64,000 bases of DNA from Myxococcota bacterium (GTDB lineage Bacteria > Myxococcota_A > Polyangia > Nannocystales > Nannocystaceae). The stretch covers positions 128,001 to 192,000 of the forward strand of contig JBCCHT010000023.1 in assembly GCA_039028615.1 (NCBI GenBank), written 5' to 3'. Of this stretch, positions 14,534 through 23,902 are shown piece after piece. The position numbers and the translations under genes were made by a program. The notes below the pieces were generated by a model that was given only the letters and a program-made list of their open reading frames with translations, searched no databases and was not told the DNA's origin. Position 1 is the stretch's first letter. Each line of letters begins with the position of its first letter.

Positions 14534-14801
14534 CGCCAGCGTTCGCGGCGGAACACGATGCCCGGGGGCCGAAGCACGACGCGTGCCCACGGGCATGTGC
14601 ATTTAATGTCGACGAACCCTCGCCGACGATTCGTACCGCGACGCCCATGCCCCACCGCGGCGTCGCGACATGAAAGGTCACCCGCCGAGTCGCCCCGACC
14701 TTAAATCGACGAACCGAAGAGTCCGTGCGTCTGGACCCCCCGATGTTTGGTGCAAGGCTGCGAAATCCGAACACCCCCCAACCCAAAGACGCACGGACAT
14801 C

Positions 14802-15770
14802 ATGCAATCACGTCCCCTTCGAGTCCTCATGGCCGGAACGCTGGCCGCGGCCTGTTTCGGTAGCCTCGCCTGCGACCCGCCGGTCTTCACCCCGTTCCCC
14901 GAGGCCGACCTCTACTACACGACCTTCAACTCGGTCCGCATGATCGACACGATGGGGGACGAGCACACCGTCTACGCCCCCAGCGGCGCCGACTTCTTCG
15001 GACTCGAGCTCGAAGGCAACTCGGTCTTCGTGGCCGACAACGCGCTGACCTTTCGCGGTTTTCAGCCCAACGACCAGAACCTGTCGATGAACCCCGACTG
15101 GGACGCGTGCTCGCCCAACGGCGTCACCTGTGACGCGGCGACGGACATCGAGCTGATCCCCGGGCTCGACGACGCGATCGCCTGCGCCGACGAAGCGGTC
15201 GTCTACGTCAACATCCCGGGCGCCTCGAGCTTCGGCGGCGGCACCCGGGCCTCGGTCATCACGCAGGCCGACGACGTCGCGCTGCCCTTCAGCGTCGCCA
15301 TCAACGATGCCCGATATGCCTTCGTCGTCGGCGTGGACGAGATGTCGGTCACCGACCTCAACGACCCCATGTTCAACACCGCGCCCGTGACCGGTCATGG
15401 CCTCACCCTCGGTGGTTTCTCGGTCTTCGACCCCGCGGGCAACTTCTACGTCTGTGATCCGGGCGCGGACGAGATCCGCATGTACACCGCCGCGCAGATC
15501 ACCGACATCATGTTCGACCTCGACAACGGCAACACCATCACCGAGCCCATGGCCGTGCTGTCCACGGGTGGCTTGCTCGCAGGGAGCATGGGTGCCGATG
15601 CCAGCGTGCGCGGCCCGGTCGGCATCGACTTCCGCGGCGGCATGCTGTGGGTGACGGTCGATGTGGGTACGGGCATGGCCGGGCACATCGTGCAGGTCGA
15701 CCCGGCCGACGGGGCGCAGACGATGTGGCGGACGGGCCTCGAAGGTCCGCGAGACATCCACATGGACTGA
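14802..15770 (+). CDS. Lipoprotein, beta-propeller-like (NHL/SMP-30-like)
   Basis: SLAC lipobox; FDPAGNFYVCD, GPVGIDF, GLEGPRDI repeats. ATG 14802 preferred. Confidence 0.75.
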   Translation: MQSRPLRVLMAGTLAAACFGSLACDPPVFTPFPEADLYYTTFNSVRMIDTMGDEHTVYAPSGADFFGLELEGNSVFVADNALTFRGFQPNDQNLSMNPDWDACSPNGVTCDAATDIELIPGLDDAIACADEAVVYVNIPGASSFGGGTRASVITQADDVALPFSVAINDARYAFVVGVDEMSVTDLNDPMFNTAPVTGHGLTLGGFSVFDPAGNFYVCDPGADEIRMYTAAQITDIMFDLDNGNTITEPMAVLSTGGLLAGSMGADASVRGPVGIDFRGGMLWVTVDVGTGMAGHIVQVDPADGAQTMWRTGLEGPRDIHMD

Positions 15771-15828
15771 ATCCGTACCAAAGGCCGATGCCCCGCCGAG
15801 GGCCGTCTGCTACGATCCGGTGGTTTCG

Positions 15829-17337
15829 ATGGTCCCTCGTTCGGTGCCGTTCGCATGTGGCCTGCTCGGCCTCGCGTCGTGCGGACCGAGCGTGAACCCC
15901 CCCAGTGGCGCAAGCTCGGGTTCGGACACGGGCGCATCCCAGAGCGCCGAGTCGACCGGGCTCGAGGATCCCTTTGGCCTCGAGCCCTTCGGCGGCGGCA
16001 GTCGGCTGCTCGCGCGCGTGCTCGAGGTCCCGGGTGGCGCTCGCCGAGTGCAGGCGTTCCACGACCAACAGCTCGGCATCGACTGCCGCATCTTCGACAC
16101 GCCGCAGGGCCTCCACTGTCTGCCCACTACCGAAGACCTGGGCATTGCGAGCGCCGACGGGCCGCTGCTGTTCGCGGACAGCGAGTGCACCATCCCCGCG
16201 CTGAAGGTACCCGCGGGCTACCCCGTTCCGAGCATCACCTCGCTGCGCCCAGGCGATCTGTTGACCACGCCCTTCCCGGGGCGCTGTCCCGGGCTGCCTC
16301 ACCGGGCAACGGTGCATCGGCTCGTCCGCGAGGTCTCGACCGCCTATCGCGGCGAAGACTGCGAGTCCGCCTCGTCTCCCGACGATCGGGTGTACTCCCT
16401 CGAGGAAGTCGACCTGAGCATGTTCGTGGCGGGGCAGCTGGTCGACGCCGACGGCATTCGCCGACTCGTCACCGACGATGGAGCCTGGCACAACGCGTAC
16501 CCGCTCGACGATGCCGGGCAGCCCTGCAACGTGGGGTGGGTCGACGGGGAGACCATGTGCAGCCCGCTACGGATGCCGCTCGCCGGCCTCACCGACATGA
16601 CGTGCCACGAGGGCAGCGCGGGTACCTGTGACGGGCAGCGAGTCGCCAGCTCTGTAGACATCCCCGACTACTGCGACCACGACCCCCCGTTCGCGTTTTC
16701 GTACACGGACGACCCCTGGGCCCATCTGTATTACCCCGTGGTCGGCGTGACGGAGTCCGCCGAGTGCTCGGTCGGCGGCGAATGTGGGCCCGCCGAAGAC
16801 CGCGCCACGTTCAGCGGCCCACCGCTGTTGGTGGGTGAACCGGTGCTCGACCCGGGCTTCCCCGCGGTGGAGGTCTTCGAGCTCGGTGAAGGCCCGGTGG
16901 TGGCCGATTGGATTCGGCGCTTCCCGGGCGATCCACCCAGCGGCTTCGGCATGCCCAGCGAGCTGGACGGGTTCTTCGACACGCGGCTCGGCTCGGACTG
17001 CTACCCCGAGGCGGTCGACGACGAGTGGTGGTGCCTGCACCCTCTGACCGTGTGGGTCGACGAGTGGGTCAACTTCTCGGACTCCAATTGTCAGCACCCC
17101 GTGCACGCCGTGAACCGCAACGTCAGCACCTTGATGCTCACGGGTGAGGCTGCGGTCGAAGGGGCCGGCCTCCACGGCCACTCCTATTGGACGGTCGACA
17201 TCCTCGAGAACGAGACCGTCTACGAGATGTTCTACGGCGAGTGTCGCGTCGACCCGGTCACCCACGGCTCCAGCTTTGCTCGCCCGGTGGCCGAGCTCGC
17301 GATCGAGCCGATCCGCATCACCGAGCATCTCGAGTGA
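15829..17337 (+). CDS. Cys-rich hypothetical lipoprotein with internally repeated domain
   Basis: LASC lipobox; FHDQQLGIDC...FADSEC and FFDTRLGSDC...FSDSNC repeats. Confidence 0.8.
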   Translation: MVPRSVPFACGLLGLASCGPSVNPPSGASSGSDTGASQSAESTGLEDPFGLEPFGGGSRLLARVLEVPGGARRVQAFHDQQLGIDCRIFDTPQGLHCLPTTEDLGIASADGPLLFADSECTIPALKVPAGYPVPSITSLRPGDLLTTPFPGRCPGLPHRATVHRLVREVSTAYRGEDCESASSPDDRVYSLEEVDLSMFVAGQLVDADGIRRLVTDDGAWHNAYPLDDAGQPCNVGWVDGETMCSPLRMPLAGLTDMTCHEGSAGTCDGQRVASSVDIPDYCDHDPPFAFSYTDDPWAHLYYPVVGVTESAECSVGGECGPAEDRATFSGPPLLVGEPVLDPGFPAVEVFELGEGPVVADWIRRFPGDPPSGFGMPSELDGFFDTRLGSDCYPEAVDDEWWCLHPLTVWVDEWVNFSDSNCQHPVHAVNRNVSTLMLTGEAAVEGAGLHGHSYWTVDILENETVYEMFYGECRVDPVTHGSSFARPVAELAIEPIRITEHLE

Positions 17338-17369
17338 TCGAGGTGTGAGTTTTGCGGAATACTCGGTGC

Positions 17370-17397
17370 TTGAATCGGCGGCGAATCCCCGTAGGGT
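17370..17397 (+). promoter_or_regulatory. Putative sigma70-type promoter for the leader-aspS transcript
   Basis: TTGAAT (17370-17375) - 16 nt - TAGGGT (17392-17397), 30 nt before the leader ATG. Confidence 0.45.
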
Positions 17398-17427
17398 CAA
17401 ATTAGGCGACCCCTGAAAGGACCACGC

Positions 17428-17472
17428 ATGGACCACGACGACGACGGTGATGATCGGAGGGGGCGCGCCTAG
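17428..17472 (+). CDS. Asp-rich leader peptide MDHDDDGDDRRGRA
   Basis: ATG GAC CAC GAC GAC GAC GGT GAT GAT CGG AGG GGG CGC GCC TAG, preceded by SD-like GAAAGGA. Six of the first nine codons are Asp, directly upstream of an AspRS gene. Confidence 0.85.
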   Translation: MDHDDDGDDRRGRA

Positions 17473-17547
17473 ATTTCATTTCACGAATCGGCCCCGGGCG
17501 CGTGCCCTCGCGTGCAACGACCGCGGGCCGATCGAAGGAACGAAATC
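17457..17547 (+). promoter_or_regulatory. Putative translational attenuator (RBS-sequestering hairpin and competing stem)
   Basis: Sequestering stems: GATTTC 17472-77/GAAATC 17542-47, TTTC 17479-82/GGAA 17537-40, ATCGGCCC 17487-94/GGGCCGAT 17525-32. Competing stem: 17457-69/17497-509. Confidence 0.75.
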
Positions 17548-18855
17548 ATGGAGAACAACCGAATTCGCACCGTACAGGTGCGTCAGCATATTGGTGAGCG
17601 CGTCACGATCTGCGGCTGGGTGCACGCGATACGACGCCTGGGCAAAGTCGCATTCGTCATCGTCCGCGACGGCTTCGGCACGATTCAGGTCGTGGCGAGT
17701 CGAGCGGCGCTGGCCCCCTTGGAACGTACGCGGGCCGGCCCCGAGTCGGTCGTACGCATTGAGGCCGAGGCGGTCGCCAATGCGGGCTCCCCCGGCGGCA
17801 TCGAGCTGGTGGCGCCGCAGATCGAGGTCTTGGTGCCCGTCACCGAGCCCTTGCCCGTCGAGCTGAACAAGCAGCTGCGCACCGCCAAGCTGCCCACGCT
17901 GCTCGACCATGCGCCGACCGTCCTACGGGCACCGACTCGGCGAGCGGTGCTCGAGCTTTCGGCCGGAGTGATGGCCGGCTTTCGGCACACGCTCACCGAG
18001 CGGGGCTTCACCGAGATCCAGACGCCGAAGCTGGTGGGCGCCGCGACCGAGAGCGGCGCCAACGTGTTCGCACTCGAGTACTTCGGAGGGCATGCCTACC
18101 TGGCCCAGAGCCCGCAGCTGTACAAGCAGATGATGGTGGGGGTGTTCGAGCGGGTCTTCGAAGTCGGCCCCGTGTTTCGAGCCGAGCCGCACGCCACGGT
18201 TCGTCATCTATCGCAGTACGTCAGCCTCGACGTCGAGCTCGGCTTCATCGAGGACCACGGCTGCGTGATCGAGCAGCTCGAGGCGGTCCTCGCGGGCATC
18301 CTCGAGACTCTGCGAGCACGGTGCAGCCCGGCCCTCGAAGCGCTGGAGGTCGAGCTTCCCGCCGTCGAATCGCCGCTGCCGAGGATCGAGTTCGGCGAAG
18401 CGCGGGCCATGCTGGCCGCCGAGGGCATCGGGCCGCGTGAAGCCGAGGACCTCGCTCCGGCCGAGGAGCGCTGGCTGGGGCAGTGGGCGCAACGCGAGCA
18501 CGGCAGCGCGTGGTTGGTCGTCACCGGCTATCCCATGGCCAAGCGTCCCTTCTACACGCACCCCGCCCCGGGTCGCCCGGAGGTCTCGAACTCGTTCGAC
18601 CTGTTGTTCCGGGGCACCGAGCTGGTCACGGGAGGTCAGCGACTGCATCGCCACGAGGCACTGCTCGCGGCGATGAGCGCGGCGGGGGTCGACCCCCTAC
18701 TGCTGGCCGGCTACCTGGAGTCGTTTCGCTTCGGTATGCCTCCGCACGGTGGTTTCGCCATCGGGCTCGAGCGCTTCGTGACGCAGCTGCTCGGTCTCGA
18801 CAACATTCGGCTCGCGACGTTGCTGCCGCGCGACCCCGGACGGCTCACCCCATGA
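17548..18855 (+). CDS. aspS: Aspartate--tRNA(Asp/Asn) ligase, archaeal-type non-discriminating AspRS
   Basis: 435 aa; OB fold GWVHAIRRLGKVAF, FTEIQTPKL, YLAQSPQLYKQ, FRAE, GMPPHGGFAIGLER. No bacterial GAD insertion; short NAGSPGG loop. Confidence 0.93.
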   Translation: MENNRIRTVQVRQHIGERVTICGWVHAIRRLGKVAFVIVRDGFGTIQVVASRAALAPLERTRAGPESVVRIEAEAVANAGSPGGIELVAPQIEVLVPVTEPLPVELNKQLRTAKLPTLLDHAPTVLRAPTRRAVLELSAGVMAGFRHTLTERGFTEIQTPKLVGAATESGANVFALEYFGGHAYLAQSPQLYKQMMVGVFERVFEVGPVFRAEPHATVRHLSQYVSLDVELGFIEDHGCVIEQLEAVLAGILETLRARCSPALEALEVELPAVESPLPRIEFGEARAMLAAEGIGPREAEDLAPAEERWLGQWAQREHGSAWLVVTGYPMAKRPFYTHPAPGRPEVSNSFDLLFRGTELVTGGQRLHRHEALLAAMSAAGVDPLLLAGYLESFRFGMPPHGGFAIGLERFVTQLLGLDNIRLATLLPRDPGRLTP

Positions 18856-18984
18856 ACCGAGCGGGCGCGGGTGCTCGGGGCCTCAGCCCTGGGGGCCCGC
18901 GCCCTCCCGCGCTCGACCTTCGATCGAAACCAACTGCAGTCGACGGTAGTGCCTCTTCCGTCGGCCAGATACGATGGAAAAATC

Positions 18985-20133
18985 GTGAAGTCCGGTGCGT
19001 TGATCAAGGGCGTCCTGTTGCTCGGCTCGTTGCTGCTCGGGGGTTGTCCCGGCTCGTCCGGCAGCGGGGACTCGGCGGCCGCCGACGACGGGACCAACGA
19101 GACCGGAGAGCAGGAGCCCTCGGTCGGCCCCGACGGCACCGTGTGCGCGCCCGGGTACACCTGCTGGGCCGATCCGAGCGACGACGTCGTCTGGGTCATG
19201 AAGGACGACGGCAACGTCAACGGCCCCTCGTGCAAGTCCGTGTGCGAGAACGCCTTGAGCGACAACTGCGAGTTCAACGGCTGCGATGCCGGTCGAGCCG
19301 TCGCGTATACCGATATCCCCAGCTTCGCCCCGGTGGCGGAAGGGCTCGGCTTCAGCTGTCGCGAGGGCGGATGCTGGTGGCCCGACGCTCCCGGCGAGGG
19401 CCTGTATCTCGTGTCGATCGATACCGACGAGGACGGCAGCAAGTCCTGCTACTTCCCCACCCAAGAGCAGCTCGAGTGCAACACACACCCCGGCAACGCC
19501 AACTGCTTCGGTGAGCGCTACGCGGCCGTGTGCCCCTGCGTTCCCAAGGAGCTCGACCAAGCCTGCGAGTGGGAGTGCCCGCCTCAACACACCACGCGCG
19601 CGACCTGGAAGACGGACGGCACCAGCTGCGTCGAGCGGATCAACTACTGGCGTCGGGTCGCATGCGAAGAAGGCTGGGTCGAGTGTCCGCCCGCTGGCCT
19701 TCCGCCCATGGTCGAGTGCACCGCGTGCCACGAGTGCGCCAACTCTGAGGCCCAGTACGACTCGGAGAACGGCGCCCACGCCTCGTTCGGTCGCTGCGGC
19801 GAGAACGTCCAGGGCGAGGGCGGAGGCGCGACCTGTGCCGACGTCATCGACTCGTTCGTCAGCGAGCGCGCTCCCGACGAAGACGGCGTGATGCGCTGCC
19901 AAGGCCACTGCGGCCCCATCCTCGCCCCGGGCTGCCAGACCTTCTTTTGGGGCAAGGCCATGGACTCCGGCTTCCACACGCTGAACTGGCGCTCGTGCAA
20001 CGTCGAGGCCTGCACGTCGTACTGCGACGAGAACCCGGGCGATTGTTTCACGCACGAGACCTCCCCGGACCTGACCTGCGACGACCCCGACGAAGGGGCC
20101 GAGCCCGGCCCGGACATCCTGGCCTGCGGCTGA
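18985..20133 (+). CDS. Cys-rich lipoprotein with CAP/SCP-like C-terminal region
   Basis: LGGC lipobox after GTG 18985; CVERINYWR...AHASFGRCGEN...GH pattern. Confidence 0.7.
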   Translation: MKSGALIKGVLLLGSLLLGGCPGSSGSGDSAAADDGTNETGEQEPSVGPDGTVCAPGYTCWADPSDDVVWVMKDDGNVNGPSCKSVCENALSDNCEFNGCDAGRAVAYTDIPSFAPVAEGLGFSCREGGCWWPDAPGEGLYLVSIDTDEDGSKSCYFPTQEQLECNTHPGNANCFGERYAAVCPCVPKELDQACEWECPPQHTTRATWKTDGTSCVERINYWRRVACEEGWVECPPAGLPPMVECTACHECANSEAQYDSENGAHASFGRCGENVQGEGGGATCADVIDSFVSERAPDEDGVMRCQGHCGPILAPGCQTFFWGKAMDSGFHTLNWRSCNVEACTSYCDENPGDCFTHETSPDLTCDDPDEGAEPGPDILACG

Positions 20134-20938: not shown

Positions 20939-23902
20939 TCACTCGCCGAGCGGATTCTCGTCGAGCCACTCCTGGAGCTGATCGCGGAGCACCTGCGGGC
21001 TGTCCTCGGCCTCTCGCCACAGCCGCCAGGCCTCTTCGTTGAGCACCTTGGCCCGGCCACGATCCCGAGCCGGGCCTTCGATCTTCCACAGCGCCTGCGC
21101 GAGGTTCTGGGCTCCTTCCACCCGCATCTCCAGCGTCGATCCGTCGTTCTGTCGGCGAGCGTAGACCTCCTCCAGCATGGGCAGGGCTTCGGCAAACTCG
21201 CCCTTGTCCAGCAACAAGACGGCCAGGTTCGAACGCACCGCCGTCGTGTACCGATGATCGGGGCCCATGGACTCCACGAGCCGCGGAAGGATGTCTCGTG
21301 ACTCGGCCTCGACTTCATCGAGGCGTTCGAGCTGGTACAGCACGCTGGTCAGGTTGATCCGGGCGCCCAGCACATGATGGTGATTAGGGCCCAGCCGCTC
21401 TTCGAGCCGCTTCGCTGCGATTCGTTGCTGGACCAGCGCTTCTTCGTGTCGACCCATCCTCACGAGCAAGCTACCCAGGTTGGCGCGCGCCAGATCGCCG
21501 TAGAACACCTCCGCATCCTGGGCCTCGTCTCCCGTCTCGATGAGGGCGCGAAACTCAGCCTCCGCCTCTTCGTACTTCCCCCGGCTTCGCAGCACGATGG
21601 CGAGATGCTGCCGGGTCGCCGCCGCTTGGGAGTGCTCGCGGCCCAAGGCCTGAACCTGCATCTCGAGCGCCGCCCGAAGCTCGGTCTCCGCCTCCTCGTA
21701 CTCCTCGAGCTTGATCAGCGTGACGCCGAGTCGATCGCGGAGCGTGGCCACCGAGGGGTGGCGCGGGCCCAAGGATGCCTCCATCTGAGAGATCGCCGCC
21801 CGGTGCTCGGCCTGTGCCTCCGCGTCTTTGCCCTTCGCCTCGAGCACGCTGGCCACGTTGCTCCGAACGAAGGCCACCTTGTGATGCTCGGCCCCGTACG
21901 CCTGCGCATACAGGTCTGCCGCCAGTCGATATCCGGCCTCCGCTTCGTCGTATTTGCCCTGCGCACGCAGAGTGGCCGCGATGATGTCTTGCACCCGCGC
22001 CTCGTCTTGAGCTCGACCGCGAGCGAGACCCAACGCGACGCGACGGTACTGGAGCGCCTCTTCGAAGCGTCGTTGTTCGGGGCCCAGCACGCCCATCACG
22101 TGGGCGGTGGCATCACGCATGGCATCCCACAGACGCAGGGCCGACGCCTCTTCGAGCGCATCCAGCGAAACCTCGACCGACTCGTCGTACTCACCGACCG
22201 CCGACAGCAGGTGAGCCTGTTGAAGCTTCACCTCGACCTGAACCGGTCGATAGTCCACCGCGGCGAGTCGGACCTTGGCGTGCTCGAGCTCGGTGGCCGC
22301 GGCATCGAAGCGAGCGGCCCGGCGAAGGTTGCGTACCCGCGACAACGACTCGCGAATCGCGGCGACCGTCTCTTCGTCCTCGGGCCGGGGTGGCTCCACC
22401 GCCGCCGACAACGCCTGAGGGTCCGAACACCGAGCCAGCGGACGCAGGCCTCCGACGAAATCGTGAGCGTTGCTCGCCACGTCGACGTCCGCGTCGGCCA
22501 GCATGTCGACGGTGGTTCGCAGATCGACCGCGGCCCGGCTCAAGCAGCTCATGCGGAGGTCCAACATCTGGGCCGACTGCTCCCCGCGGACCGTGGTCGC
22601 CCGGCAGGCCTCGGTGTGCGTCGCCACCCAGTCGTCGGCGTACGCATCGAGTTCTGCCGAGGTCTTGTCCCAGACCTCGGACGCGAACGGTGTCGTCAGG
22701 CCTTGGAACACGGCCGCGACCTCCTCCCGTCGCGCGTCGTCCCAGACCCCGACCAGCTGTTGCTCCGCGCCCGAGCACCGCTCGGACTGCGCGGTCGCCA
22801 GGACTTGCGCCATCAACCCGCCACCACCCAGCACCCCGACTCCCAGCACGCCCAGCACCCATCGCTGACGCCGACGGCCGGGGTCCCAGGTGAGGGCTTC
22901 GAGCAACGGTTCCATCGATGGCCAGCGGTCATCGGGCGCCACCGCCAGGCCGCGTCGGAGGGCCTCCACCATGCGCCGAGGCACGGCCGGAGCCCGCGAA
23001 GGCCAACTCGGCGCCCCCGCGCGCTTGGCCTCGACGAGCTCTTCGATGGTCTCGCCCCCGAAGGGCATCTCGCCCGTCAGCCCCTGCCAAAGCGCCACGC
23101 AGAAGCTGTACTGGTCGGTTCGAGCATCGGGCACCGCCCCTTCGTGCTGCTCGGGAGACATGAACCGAGGCGTGCCGAGCACGATGCCCGGCACGGTCAG
23201 AAACGACGCGCTGTTGACCCGACCCGAGCTCGTGAGCCTCGTACCTTCGGACTCCGCCAGCGGAGCGGACTCGGGTTCGTCCAGCGATCGGGCCAGCCCG
23301 AAGTCGAGGACCTTCACCACTCCGTCTTCGCCACGCATCGCGTTGTGGGGCTTGAAATCGCGATGGACCAAGCCGGCATCGTGCGCGGCCAGCAGCCCCC
23401 GACCCGCTTGCAGATAGACCCGCACGATCTCCGGCCACGGATGCTCGCGCCGACGCCAAGCGTCGAGGCTCTCGCCCCGAACGAACTCCATCGCCAGGAA
23501 CATCTGGCCGTCGTCGCTCTCCCCCACCTCGTGCACGGTGACCACGTTGGGGTGAGAGAGCCTCGCTTGGGTCTGTGCCTCCCGTTGGAAGCGCAGGCGG
23601 CTCTCCTCGTTGGGCAGCTCGTCTTCGCGGAGGACCTTGACCGCCACCTTGCGGTCGAGCTCCTCGTCATAGGCAGCGTAGACCATGCCCATGCCGCCCT
23701 GCCCCAGCTCGTCGAGCACGGTGAACCGACCGAAACGCACCGCCATGGCCTTCGGGGCGAAGATCCGCGACCGCACCCGCACCTCGATCGCCCGCTGAGC
23801 CCCGCGATCGGTGTCGGCCCCGTCCTGGTGCCTGCACGTGACCGCGTCCTCGTCGTTGGCGTCGGCTACGCCTTCGGGGCGGCTCGGACTGTCGGAGGCC
23901 AT
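20939..23902 (-). CDS. Ser/Thr protein kinase with TM and TPR repeats
   Basis: GQGGMG, VAVK, HRDFKPHN, DFG, GTPRFMSPE; LGPxHP-type TPR repeats. Confidence 0.95.
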   Translation of the reverse strand: MASDSPSRPEGVADANDEDAVTCRHQDGADTDRGAQRAIEVRVRSRIFAPKAMAVRFGRFTVLDELGQGGMGMVYAAYDEELDRKVAVKVLREDELPNEESRLRFQREAQTQARLSHPNVVTVHEVGESDDGQMFLAMEFVRGESLDAWRRREHPWPEIVRVYLQAGRGLLAAHDAGLVHRDFKPHNAMRGEDGVVKVLDFGLARSLDEPESAPLAESEGTRLTSSGRVNSASFLTVPGIVLGTPRFMSPEQHEGAVPDARTDQYSFCVALWQGLTGEMPFGGETIEELVEAKRAGAPSWPSRAPAVPRRMVEALRRGLAVAPDDRWPSMEPLLEALTWDPGRRRQRWVLGVLGVGVLGGGGLMAQVLATAQSERCSGAEQQLVGVWDDARREEVAAVFQGLTTPFASEVWDKTSAELDAYADDWVATHTEACRATTVRGEQSAQMLDLRMSCLSRAAVDLRTTVDMLADADVDVASNAHDFVGGLRPLARCSDPQALSAAVEPPRPEDEETVAAIRESLSRVRNLRRAARFDAAATELEHAKVRLAAVDYRPVQVEVKLQQAHLLSAVGEYDESVEVSLDALEEASALRLWDAMRDATAHVMGVLGPEQRRFEEALQYRRVALGLARGRAQDEARVQDIIAATLRAQGKYDEAEAGYRLAADLYAQAYGAEHHKVAFVRSNVASVLEAKGKDAEAQAEHRAAISQMEASLGPRHPSVATLRDRLGVTLIKLEEYEEAETELRAALEMQVQALGREHSQAAATRQHLAIVLRSRGKYEEAEAEFRALIETGDEAQDAEVFYGDLARANLGSLLVRMGRHEEALVQQRIAAKRLEERLGPNHHHVLGARINLTSVLYQLERLDEVEAESRDILPRLVESMGPDHRYTTAVRSNLAVLLLDKGEFAEALPMLEEVYARRQNDGSTLEMRVEGAQNLAQALWKIEGPARDRGRAKVLNEEAWRLWREAEDSPQVLRDQLQEWLDENPLGE

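Follow-up and report, generated by a model that had tools for sequence, protein, structure and literature searches.

The window, a stretch of 64,000 nucleotides, carries a gene for an archaeal-type aspartyl-tRNA synthetase (aspS2), which is preceded by a short aspartate-rich leader ORF with its own Shine-Dalgarno sequence (SD) and by a set of alternative RNA helices (Table 1). The aspS2 product was annotated from profiles as archaeal-type aspartate-tRNA(Asn) ligase, the scores of NF003483 (518.6 bits) and TIGR00458 (390.5 bits) being both above cut-off, and its best structure match is Thermus AspRS2 (1n9w). In the alignment to 1n9w and 3nel the anticodon domain carries His and Pro as in Thermus AspRS2, not Trp and Lys, at positions which we take to be determinants of non-discriminating AspRS, and the sequence thus points to an enzyme that is probably non-discriminating. 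Since canonical aspS, asnS, and gatB are all present elsewhere in the source genome, aspS2 is regarded as an accessory copy.

Table 1. Features of the aspS2 leader region, with positions in the window.
Feature	Position	Strand	Details	Basis
Possible sigma-70-type promoter	17370–17397	+	-35 at 17370–75, -10 at 17392–97, 16-nt spacer	Proposed by eye
Possible protector arm A	17402–17414	+	Would pair with 17458–17472 without a ribosome on the leader	MFE of naked 5′ part
SD of leader ORF	17415–17421	+	6 nt 5′ of leader ATG	Sequence
Leader ORF	17428–17472	+	MDHDDDGDDRRGRA; 14 codons, Asp at codons 2, 4–6, and 8–9	Sequence, genome uniqueness, conservation
Arm B	17457–17469	+	5′ strand of ON (anti-sequestrator) helix; 3′ end of leader ORF	Folding, covariation
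OFF hairpin, 5′ strand	17472–17494	+	Anti-RBS 17472–77 and 17479–82, core arm 17487–94	Folding; core covaries in Ktedonobacteria
Arm C	17497–17513	+	3′ strand of ON helix (17497–509); top stem with 17509–13 in OFF	Folding
OFF hairpin, 3′ strand	17525–17547	+	Core arm 17525–32, SD 17534–40, spacer to start codon	Folding
aspS2	17548–18855	+	Accessory archaeal-type aspartyl-tRNA synthetase, 435 aa, probably non-discriminating	NCBIfam profiles, structure match

The distribution of aspS2 is patchy, with copies in 7 of 73 family genomes and in 7 of 401 genomes sampled from the phylum, where 3 of the 7 belong to a distant (40–44%) clade without the leader; the gene was also found in 126 of 169 genomes from the class of a Ktedonobacteraceae record. 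In a FastTree tree, whose backbone is weak, the myxobacterial copies are scattered over several positions. Among the 73 of 124 candidate flank ORFs that were scanned, neighbourhoods are not shared between loci, and a role of the spare AspRS alongside microcin-C-type resistance genes was considered and rejected, none of such families being present in the same ORFs. Three long ORFs without Pfam match flank aspS2 in the window (14670–17337 and 18871–20133, + strand); two of them are also without NCBIfam match, and two are Cys-rich. A Ser/Thr kinase-TPR gene lies at 20939–23902 on the − strand.

Asp codons account for 6 of about 13–14 codons of the leader ORF. When SD-led uORFs of 8–25 codons were collected before 3402 proxy genes of the source genome (n = 154), this ORF was the sole case with at least four Asp, and a leader scan of the genome for other amino acids returned none that stood out. 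The putative transcription start lies near 17403–05, with promoter-like spacing similar in homologues; a promoter scanner found no site in the leader region, the sigma-70-type candidate selected by eye being below its threshold. The position of arm A, ending 10–12 nt 5′ of the leader ATG, is kept in 5 of 6 family loci, and the protector helix reaches p ≤ 0.05 in only 4 of 63 loci overall; such a protector would be at best lineage-specific, not general.

Alternative helices before the aspS2 start codon

Two alternative folds of this region had been described in the initial annotation, and every helix of both was recovered. The OFF fold is composed of the stems 17472–77/17542–47 (6 of 6 pairs) and 17479–82/17537–40 (4 of 4, one G-U), the core 17487–94/17525–32 (8 of 8), and the top stem 17498–502/17509–13 (5 of 5, one G-U), and forms a hairpin which spans the SD up to the base before the ATG, with purine-rich sequence on its 3′ side. 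The ON helix 17457–69/17497–509 joins arms B and C by 12 of 13 pairs, including one G-U, with one G-G mismatch. A second ON helix 17451–57/17528–34 has 7 of 7 pairs with a terminal U-G and reaches in the window a probability of 0.82 once B:C is forced, G17457 being claimed by both ON helices. None of 1000 mononucleotide shuffles was as stable as the OFF hairpin (17470–17550, −39.1 kcal/mol), and 4 of 2000 were as stable as the ON duplex (−28.3 kcal/mol). The wider segment 17420–17570, taken in full, has a stability within the ordinary range (z −0.25; 74 of 200 shuffles), as would be expected if the pairings were a product of chance in GC-rich DNA and the ORF untranslated; nevertheless, the conservation across two phyla, the covariation, and the codon boundary described below make chance an extremely improbable explanation.

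The two folds had been considered mutually exclusive, which holds for a part of the pairings. The direct or topological competitors of the ON helix are only the top stem 17498–502/17509–13 and the lower SD-covering stems, while the ON helix and the 8-bp OFF core use different bases in the order B, core 5′ arm, C, core 3′ arm, and the exclusion is therefore partly topological. The two helices also abut, with a linker of ≤3 nt in 57 of 60 loci (L217 and L195 being too short for the linker and pseudoknot analysis). Such an arrangement is compatible with the same sensor having as its ON state a standing H-type pseudoknot, in which B:C and the core exist together until the ribosome unwinds B:C and the long hairpin forms; the covariation of both helices in Ktedonobacteria and an arm C with hardly any pairing in the OFF fold at some loci (L187 0.00, L237 0.08, L254 0.09) speak for the same. 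Yet the stems of 11–13 and 8–11 bp each make approximately a full turn, so that their co-formation would need threading, and a rough penalty model preferred the pseudoknot to the nested fold at only 7 of 60 loci, with a median gap of 12 kcal/mol, which leaves a standing pseudoknot unlikely.

Conservation of the module and its putative control codons

The Asp leader is present in 27 of 27 distinct myxobacterial-type loci of this aspS2 clade with an intact 5′ end, a count which includes L212 from the unpublished G688, and none of the 27 loci has a T-box. L212 also enters the stop-counted codon, protector, and terminator tallies, and was left out of the RBS-opening energies, the helix-end codon counts, the linker and pseudoknot analysis, and all alignments. 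Among 72 Ktedonobacteria loci with sufficient upstream DNA, 37 carry both a T-box and, 3′ of it, the leader, 30 have only the T-box (as determined by the filter and including L191 from the unpublished G559), and 5 have neither; in 3 of these 5 the RNA module persists with a single Asp and a single Asn codon. The T-box specifiers before these sister copies, their position checked against three Rfam alignments, are GAC in 91 of 100 loci and AAC in 3, with 6 unparsed. No T-box match was obtained in the window leader or elsewhere in the source genome; more generally, Rfam returned no family in the window, none up to E 10 on 17250–17650, and, across 20 loci, none that reached the gathering score, T-box matches below the gathering score being found in 8 of 10 loci. 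A covariance model of the module detects a single site in the source genome, the window's own, and one site each in 34 of 101 Ktedonobacteria, and its 14 matches outside the training set comprise 13 before aspS2 and one without downstream match.

Several variants were observed among the loci. In a Ktedonobacteria sub-clade (L255, L259, L267, and L294) no T-box was detected and the RNA module is kept, the leaders having near the helix no more than a single Asp (−8) and a single Asn (−6) within a longer Pro/Arg-containing peptide. L194, L234, and L247 have T-boxes with Asn (AAC) specifier before aspS2, to which L234 adds an Asp/Asn leader; in L184 the T-box and the gene are separated by two consecutive Asp-rich uORFs; and L043, L264, and L262 possess apparently decayed modules, with helices retained and leader stop or start lost. 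T-box motifs 55–76 nt before aspS were seen in L011, L012, L014, L018, L033, L047, L055, and others (Actinomycetota, Thermomicrobiales); they have no obvious U tract and are possibly translational, and the scanned ones are below the Rfam gathering threshold. The aspS leaders of L053, L056, L062, L068–L070, and L081 (Caldiserica/Cryosericum) are conserved over ~50 nt, an apparent hairpin separating a promoter-like site from the SD, and have neither T-box nor Asp uORF.

The covariation in homologues that the initial annotation had proposed as a check was obtained for the ON helix. In the 38-locus alignment, where the counts are inflated since kin are not independent and the structure was drawn from the same sequences, 10 of 13 pairs changed on both sides, and 0 of 500 shuffles reached the paired cells, the both-side changed cells, or the covariation score, while 12 of 500 reached the pair count and 135 of 500 the pair types; the helix stood above all six slid controls. 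In 19 Ktedonobacteria loci the ON helix and the OFF core both covary, and the 13-locus Haliangiales/Polyangia alignment gave weak covariation. Exchange of spacers between loci weakened the ON duplex (own −20.8 kcal/mol, between-group −14.3 kcal/mol), swapped spacers being as good as the own ones in 104 of 2234 cases.

Because the uORFs were picked with an Asp filter, their Asp richness is partly built in, but the position of the codons is not. Counted from the leader stop, Asp occurs at −6 in 38 of 63 loci, at −7 in 31, at −5 in 1, and at −4 in none, and the Asp codons stop six codons before the ON-helix end. Counted from the helix end, the myxobacterial loci have Asp at −6 in 23 of 25 and at −7 in 21 of 25, and Asn in none of 25, and the Ktedonobacteria loci have Asn at −6 in 10 of 37 and at −7 in 15 of 37. 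AsnRS is absent in 5 of 5 Ktedonobacteria tested and present in 5 of 5 myxobacterial hosts; in these small and related samples the control codons thus appear to track the charged tRNAs fed by the enzyme. Stalling had been assigned originally to the run of three Asp codons (DDD); the polarity that follows from an Asp stall is supported, but conservation points to codons 8–9 (positions −7/−6), the Asp codons closest to the helix, as the sensing codons, and not to that run only.

Folding around the leader ribosome and the output of the proposed switch

Constrained folding with ribosome footprints, suggested earlier as a way to separate the two states, does not separate them at equilibrium. In full-length RNA OFF is dominant at every stall position, with the SD unpaired at 0.45 for footprints at codons 1–11; the RBS is opened by footprints at codons 12–15 only, and a ribosome parked on the leader stop opens the SD (unpaired 0.85), so that OFF would be complete only after the leader ribosome departs. 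In the full-length window ON (−37.2 kcal/mol) is ~9 kcal/mol less stable than OFF (−46.4 kcal/mol), and in only 5 of 62 loci does it come within 1 kcal/mol of OFF. The barrier between the folds in the window is 30 kcal/mol by findpath, which is an upper bound with pseudoknot routes excluded. Since ON loses to OFF at equilibrium whatever the ribosome does, it is only possible as a co-transcriptional trap, and, being less stable at full length, it makes the switch rest wholly on folding kinetics.

In nascent RNA ending at 17512–17526 the ON helix has a probability of 0.99–1.00 with the A site at codons 2–8, where it still competes as the SD emerges, and of 0.2–0.3 at codon 9, 0.7–0.8 at codon 10, and 0.00 at codons 11–15. 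These values are in line with the polarity proposed from the beginning, namely that an Asp stall frees 17457–69 for ON and a passing ribosome leads to OFF. The predicted cost of RBS opening in the window is 4.1 kcal/mol with ON trapped versus 13.0 kcal/mol. In the ON-trapped as compared with the released state it is more than 2 kcal/mol cheaper in 23 of 25 myxobacterial loci (median 7.7 versus 15.5) and in 25 of 37 Ktedonobacteria loci (median 8.8 versus 13.4), L211 being left out of the energy counts as it has no SD pattern.

The opening of the RBS at equilibrium by footprints at codons 12–15 only could argue for the opposite polarity, i.e., translational coupling, in which the hairpin would be melted at its foot by a ribosome arriving at the leader stop, allowing aspS2 to be translated. 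ON beats ribosome-on-stop by more than 2 kcal/mol in 16 of 25 myxobacterial and only 7 of 37 Ktedonobacteria loci, and in most Ktedonobacteria the opening energies with the ribosome at the stop are as low as with ON trapped. However, such coupling leaves the covarying B:C helix and the sharp Asp boundary unexplained, and it would lower the synthetase under failing charging, contrary to the action of the Asp T-box before these genes; we consider it very unlikely.

Sequence and folding models taken together suggest that the module is probably a leader-peptide translational attenuator, which gauges Asp-tRNA(Asp) charging, is set kinetically, and controls a spare AspRS. This reading is built on the anatomy, conservation, and covariation described above and on ribosome-driven steps that are proposed as follows. 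Leader translation would begin during transcription of the mRNA, and a ribosome that meets a shortage of charged tRNA-Asp would wait on the Asp codons, of which the last useful ones lie 6–7 codons before the helix end. Arm B would be left just outside the waiting ribosome and could pair with arm C once the latter is transcribed. The resulting 12–13 bp B:C helix may serve as a kinetic and topological lock, leaving the long SD-covering hairpin unable to wind up: full co-formation of stems of about one turn needs threading, which the ribosome on one side and the polymerase on the other would presumably prevent. The SD would then emerge open and aspS2 would be translated. At normal charging the ribosome would run over B and the core hairpin would form, and with the departure of the ribosome from the stop codon this hairpin would zip down over the SD to the ATG.

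As to the output, the claims of translational control and of a missing U tract agree with the SD-covering hairpin, the lack of detectable Rho, and the scan of the window leader, in which neither U tract nor terminator was found. A T5 run occurs in 2 of 63 module spacers, and a T4 run in 37 of 37 upstream T-box terminators of Ktedonobacteria. Transcriptional output, with the OFF hairpin as a U-less intrinsic terminator or long pause, is nevertheless conceivable, since U-tract terminators look scarce in the source genome, where by a crude scan a T-rich tail (at least 5 of 8) follows only 10 of 347 strong post-stop hairpins; besides, the lineage has no detectable Rho, and in many Ktedonobacteria the core helix ends 15–70 nt before the SD. 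This explanation has to be set against the window hairpin, which reaches over the SD as far as the last base ahead of the ATG and has a purine-rich 3′ flank, against the T-runs which do follow 31 of 86 tRNA genes, and against the Ktedonobacteria, which use a U-tract terminator slightly upstream in the same leader in 37 of 37 cases, and it appears distinctly unlikely.

Rho-coupled attenuation, suggested in the initial annotation and in keeping with the missing U tract, is rejected in this lineage because rho was found neither in the source genome (96.7% complete; HMM, Pfam domain, and tblastn) nor in any of 73 family genomes, several of which are of 9–13 Mb in 1–5 contigs. In a neighbouring order, 22 of 61 genomes do carry rho, many of them as shortened low-scoring forms, and Haliangium ochraceum is reported to be without rho (PMC11347177). 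Ktedonobacteria and some other module carriers do have rho, and polarity could add to the control there; as a general explanation Rho coupling is extremely improbable, and the output is probably translation initiation, not Rho termination.

Relation to known leader systems and biological meaning

Leader-peptide attenuation has been described for Trp, Leu, Ile/Val, Cys, and other amino acids, mostly with terminators. In classical transcription attenuators a cognate-codon ORF and a ribosome-masked alternative helix are followed by a U-tract terminator; the first two are present here and the terminator is absent, as is, by the searches above, the host Rho of tna-type Rho-dependent attenuators. 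Of the features of rtpA-type translational attenuators, in which a stalled leader ribosome exposes the SD, the SD-sequestering hairpin is present, and the SD is predicted to be accessible in nascent or trapped RNA, not at equilibrium. ermC and cat have drug-induced translational attenuators, where a stalled ribosome on the leader ORF frees the SD; there the drug acts on the nascent peptide, whereas here a cognate codon run precedes the cognate synthetase. The T-box riboswitch (Rfam RF00230) occupies the same place before sister aspS copies, mostly with Asp specifier, but the window leader has no T-box match and the ribosome is the proposed sensor. The module is thus outside the classical terminator type, the Rho type, and the T-box family.

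The Bacillus subtilis at operon (rtpA/yczA-ycbK) combines a T-box with Trp leader stalling for tandem sensing of uncharged tRNA and translational control (PMC10327191), and in Ktedonobacteria T-box and leader are likewise arranged in tandem. In contrast to the at operon, Asp (and Asn) replaces Trp here, the target is a synthetase, a long SD hairpin lies in the 45–145 nt that separate the stop from the start codon, and the window lineage uses the leader alone, having no T-box in the genome. The attenuators of Streptomyces trpS2/leuS and E. coli pheST resemble the module by a short cognate-codon ORF and alternative helices before a synthetase, often an auxiliary copy (PMC1262725; see also Vecchione and Sello 2010); they end in a U-tract terminator, whereas here the SD is covered and neither U tract nor Rho was found. 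Asp is not among the amino acids treated in the portion of PMC1262725 considered. The same portion describes the LEU element before actinobacterial leuA, which is similar by its leader ORF, pseudoknot or alternative hairpin, and SD sequestration without terminator; there, however, SD pairing involves the regulatory codons themselves, and altering codons gave effects unlike those of attenuation, while here the Asp codons precede the pairing arm by the distance of a ribosome footprint. It also reports attenuator-like leaders at Streptomyces ilvB and leuA that failed codon-mutation tests. The part of the 2008 T-box survey (PMC2494555) drawn on makes no mention of leader peptides, and bioRxiv 2020.04.20.051573 and PMC4787780 give context only. 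In the literature searched, which excludes most subscription papers and a supplement possibly listing an aspS motif, no Asp leader before aspS was found. An "aspS motif" has reportedly been published; the main text of the paper to which it is attributed gave 0 matches.

A broader interpretation, which we put forward tentatively and would not yet favour, is that of a portable terminator-free and Rho-free aminoacylation gauge built of two full-turn helices with no shared bases and with topological exclusion, the helix permitted by the stalled ribosome keeping out the SD-covering hairpin, which gauge may travel with the spare AspRS between Chloroflexota and myxobacteria, substitute for the T-box in lineages that have none, and be retuned from Asp to Asp and Asn where the enzyme also supplies Asn-tRNA, giving two-input control over a synthetase of dual specificity.

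In summary, the element would add Asp-tRNA sensing with purely translational output in a lineage without detectable Rho. The natural codon-swap series, with Asp versus Asn and with or without a tandem T-box, would make footprint geometry and kinetic RNA locking accessible to testing. The element also points to the conditions in which a spare synthetase may be useful, i.e., when Asp is short or the main AspRS is inhibited.
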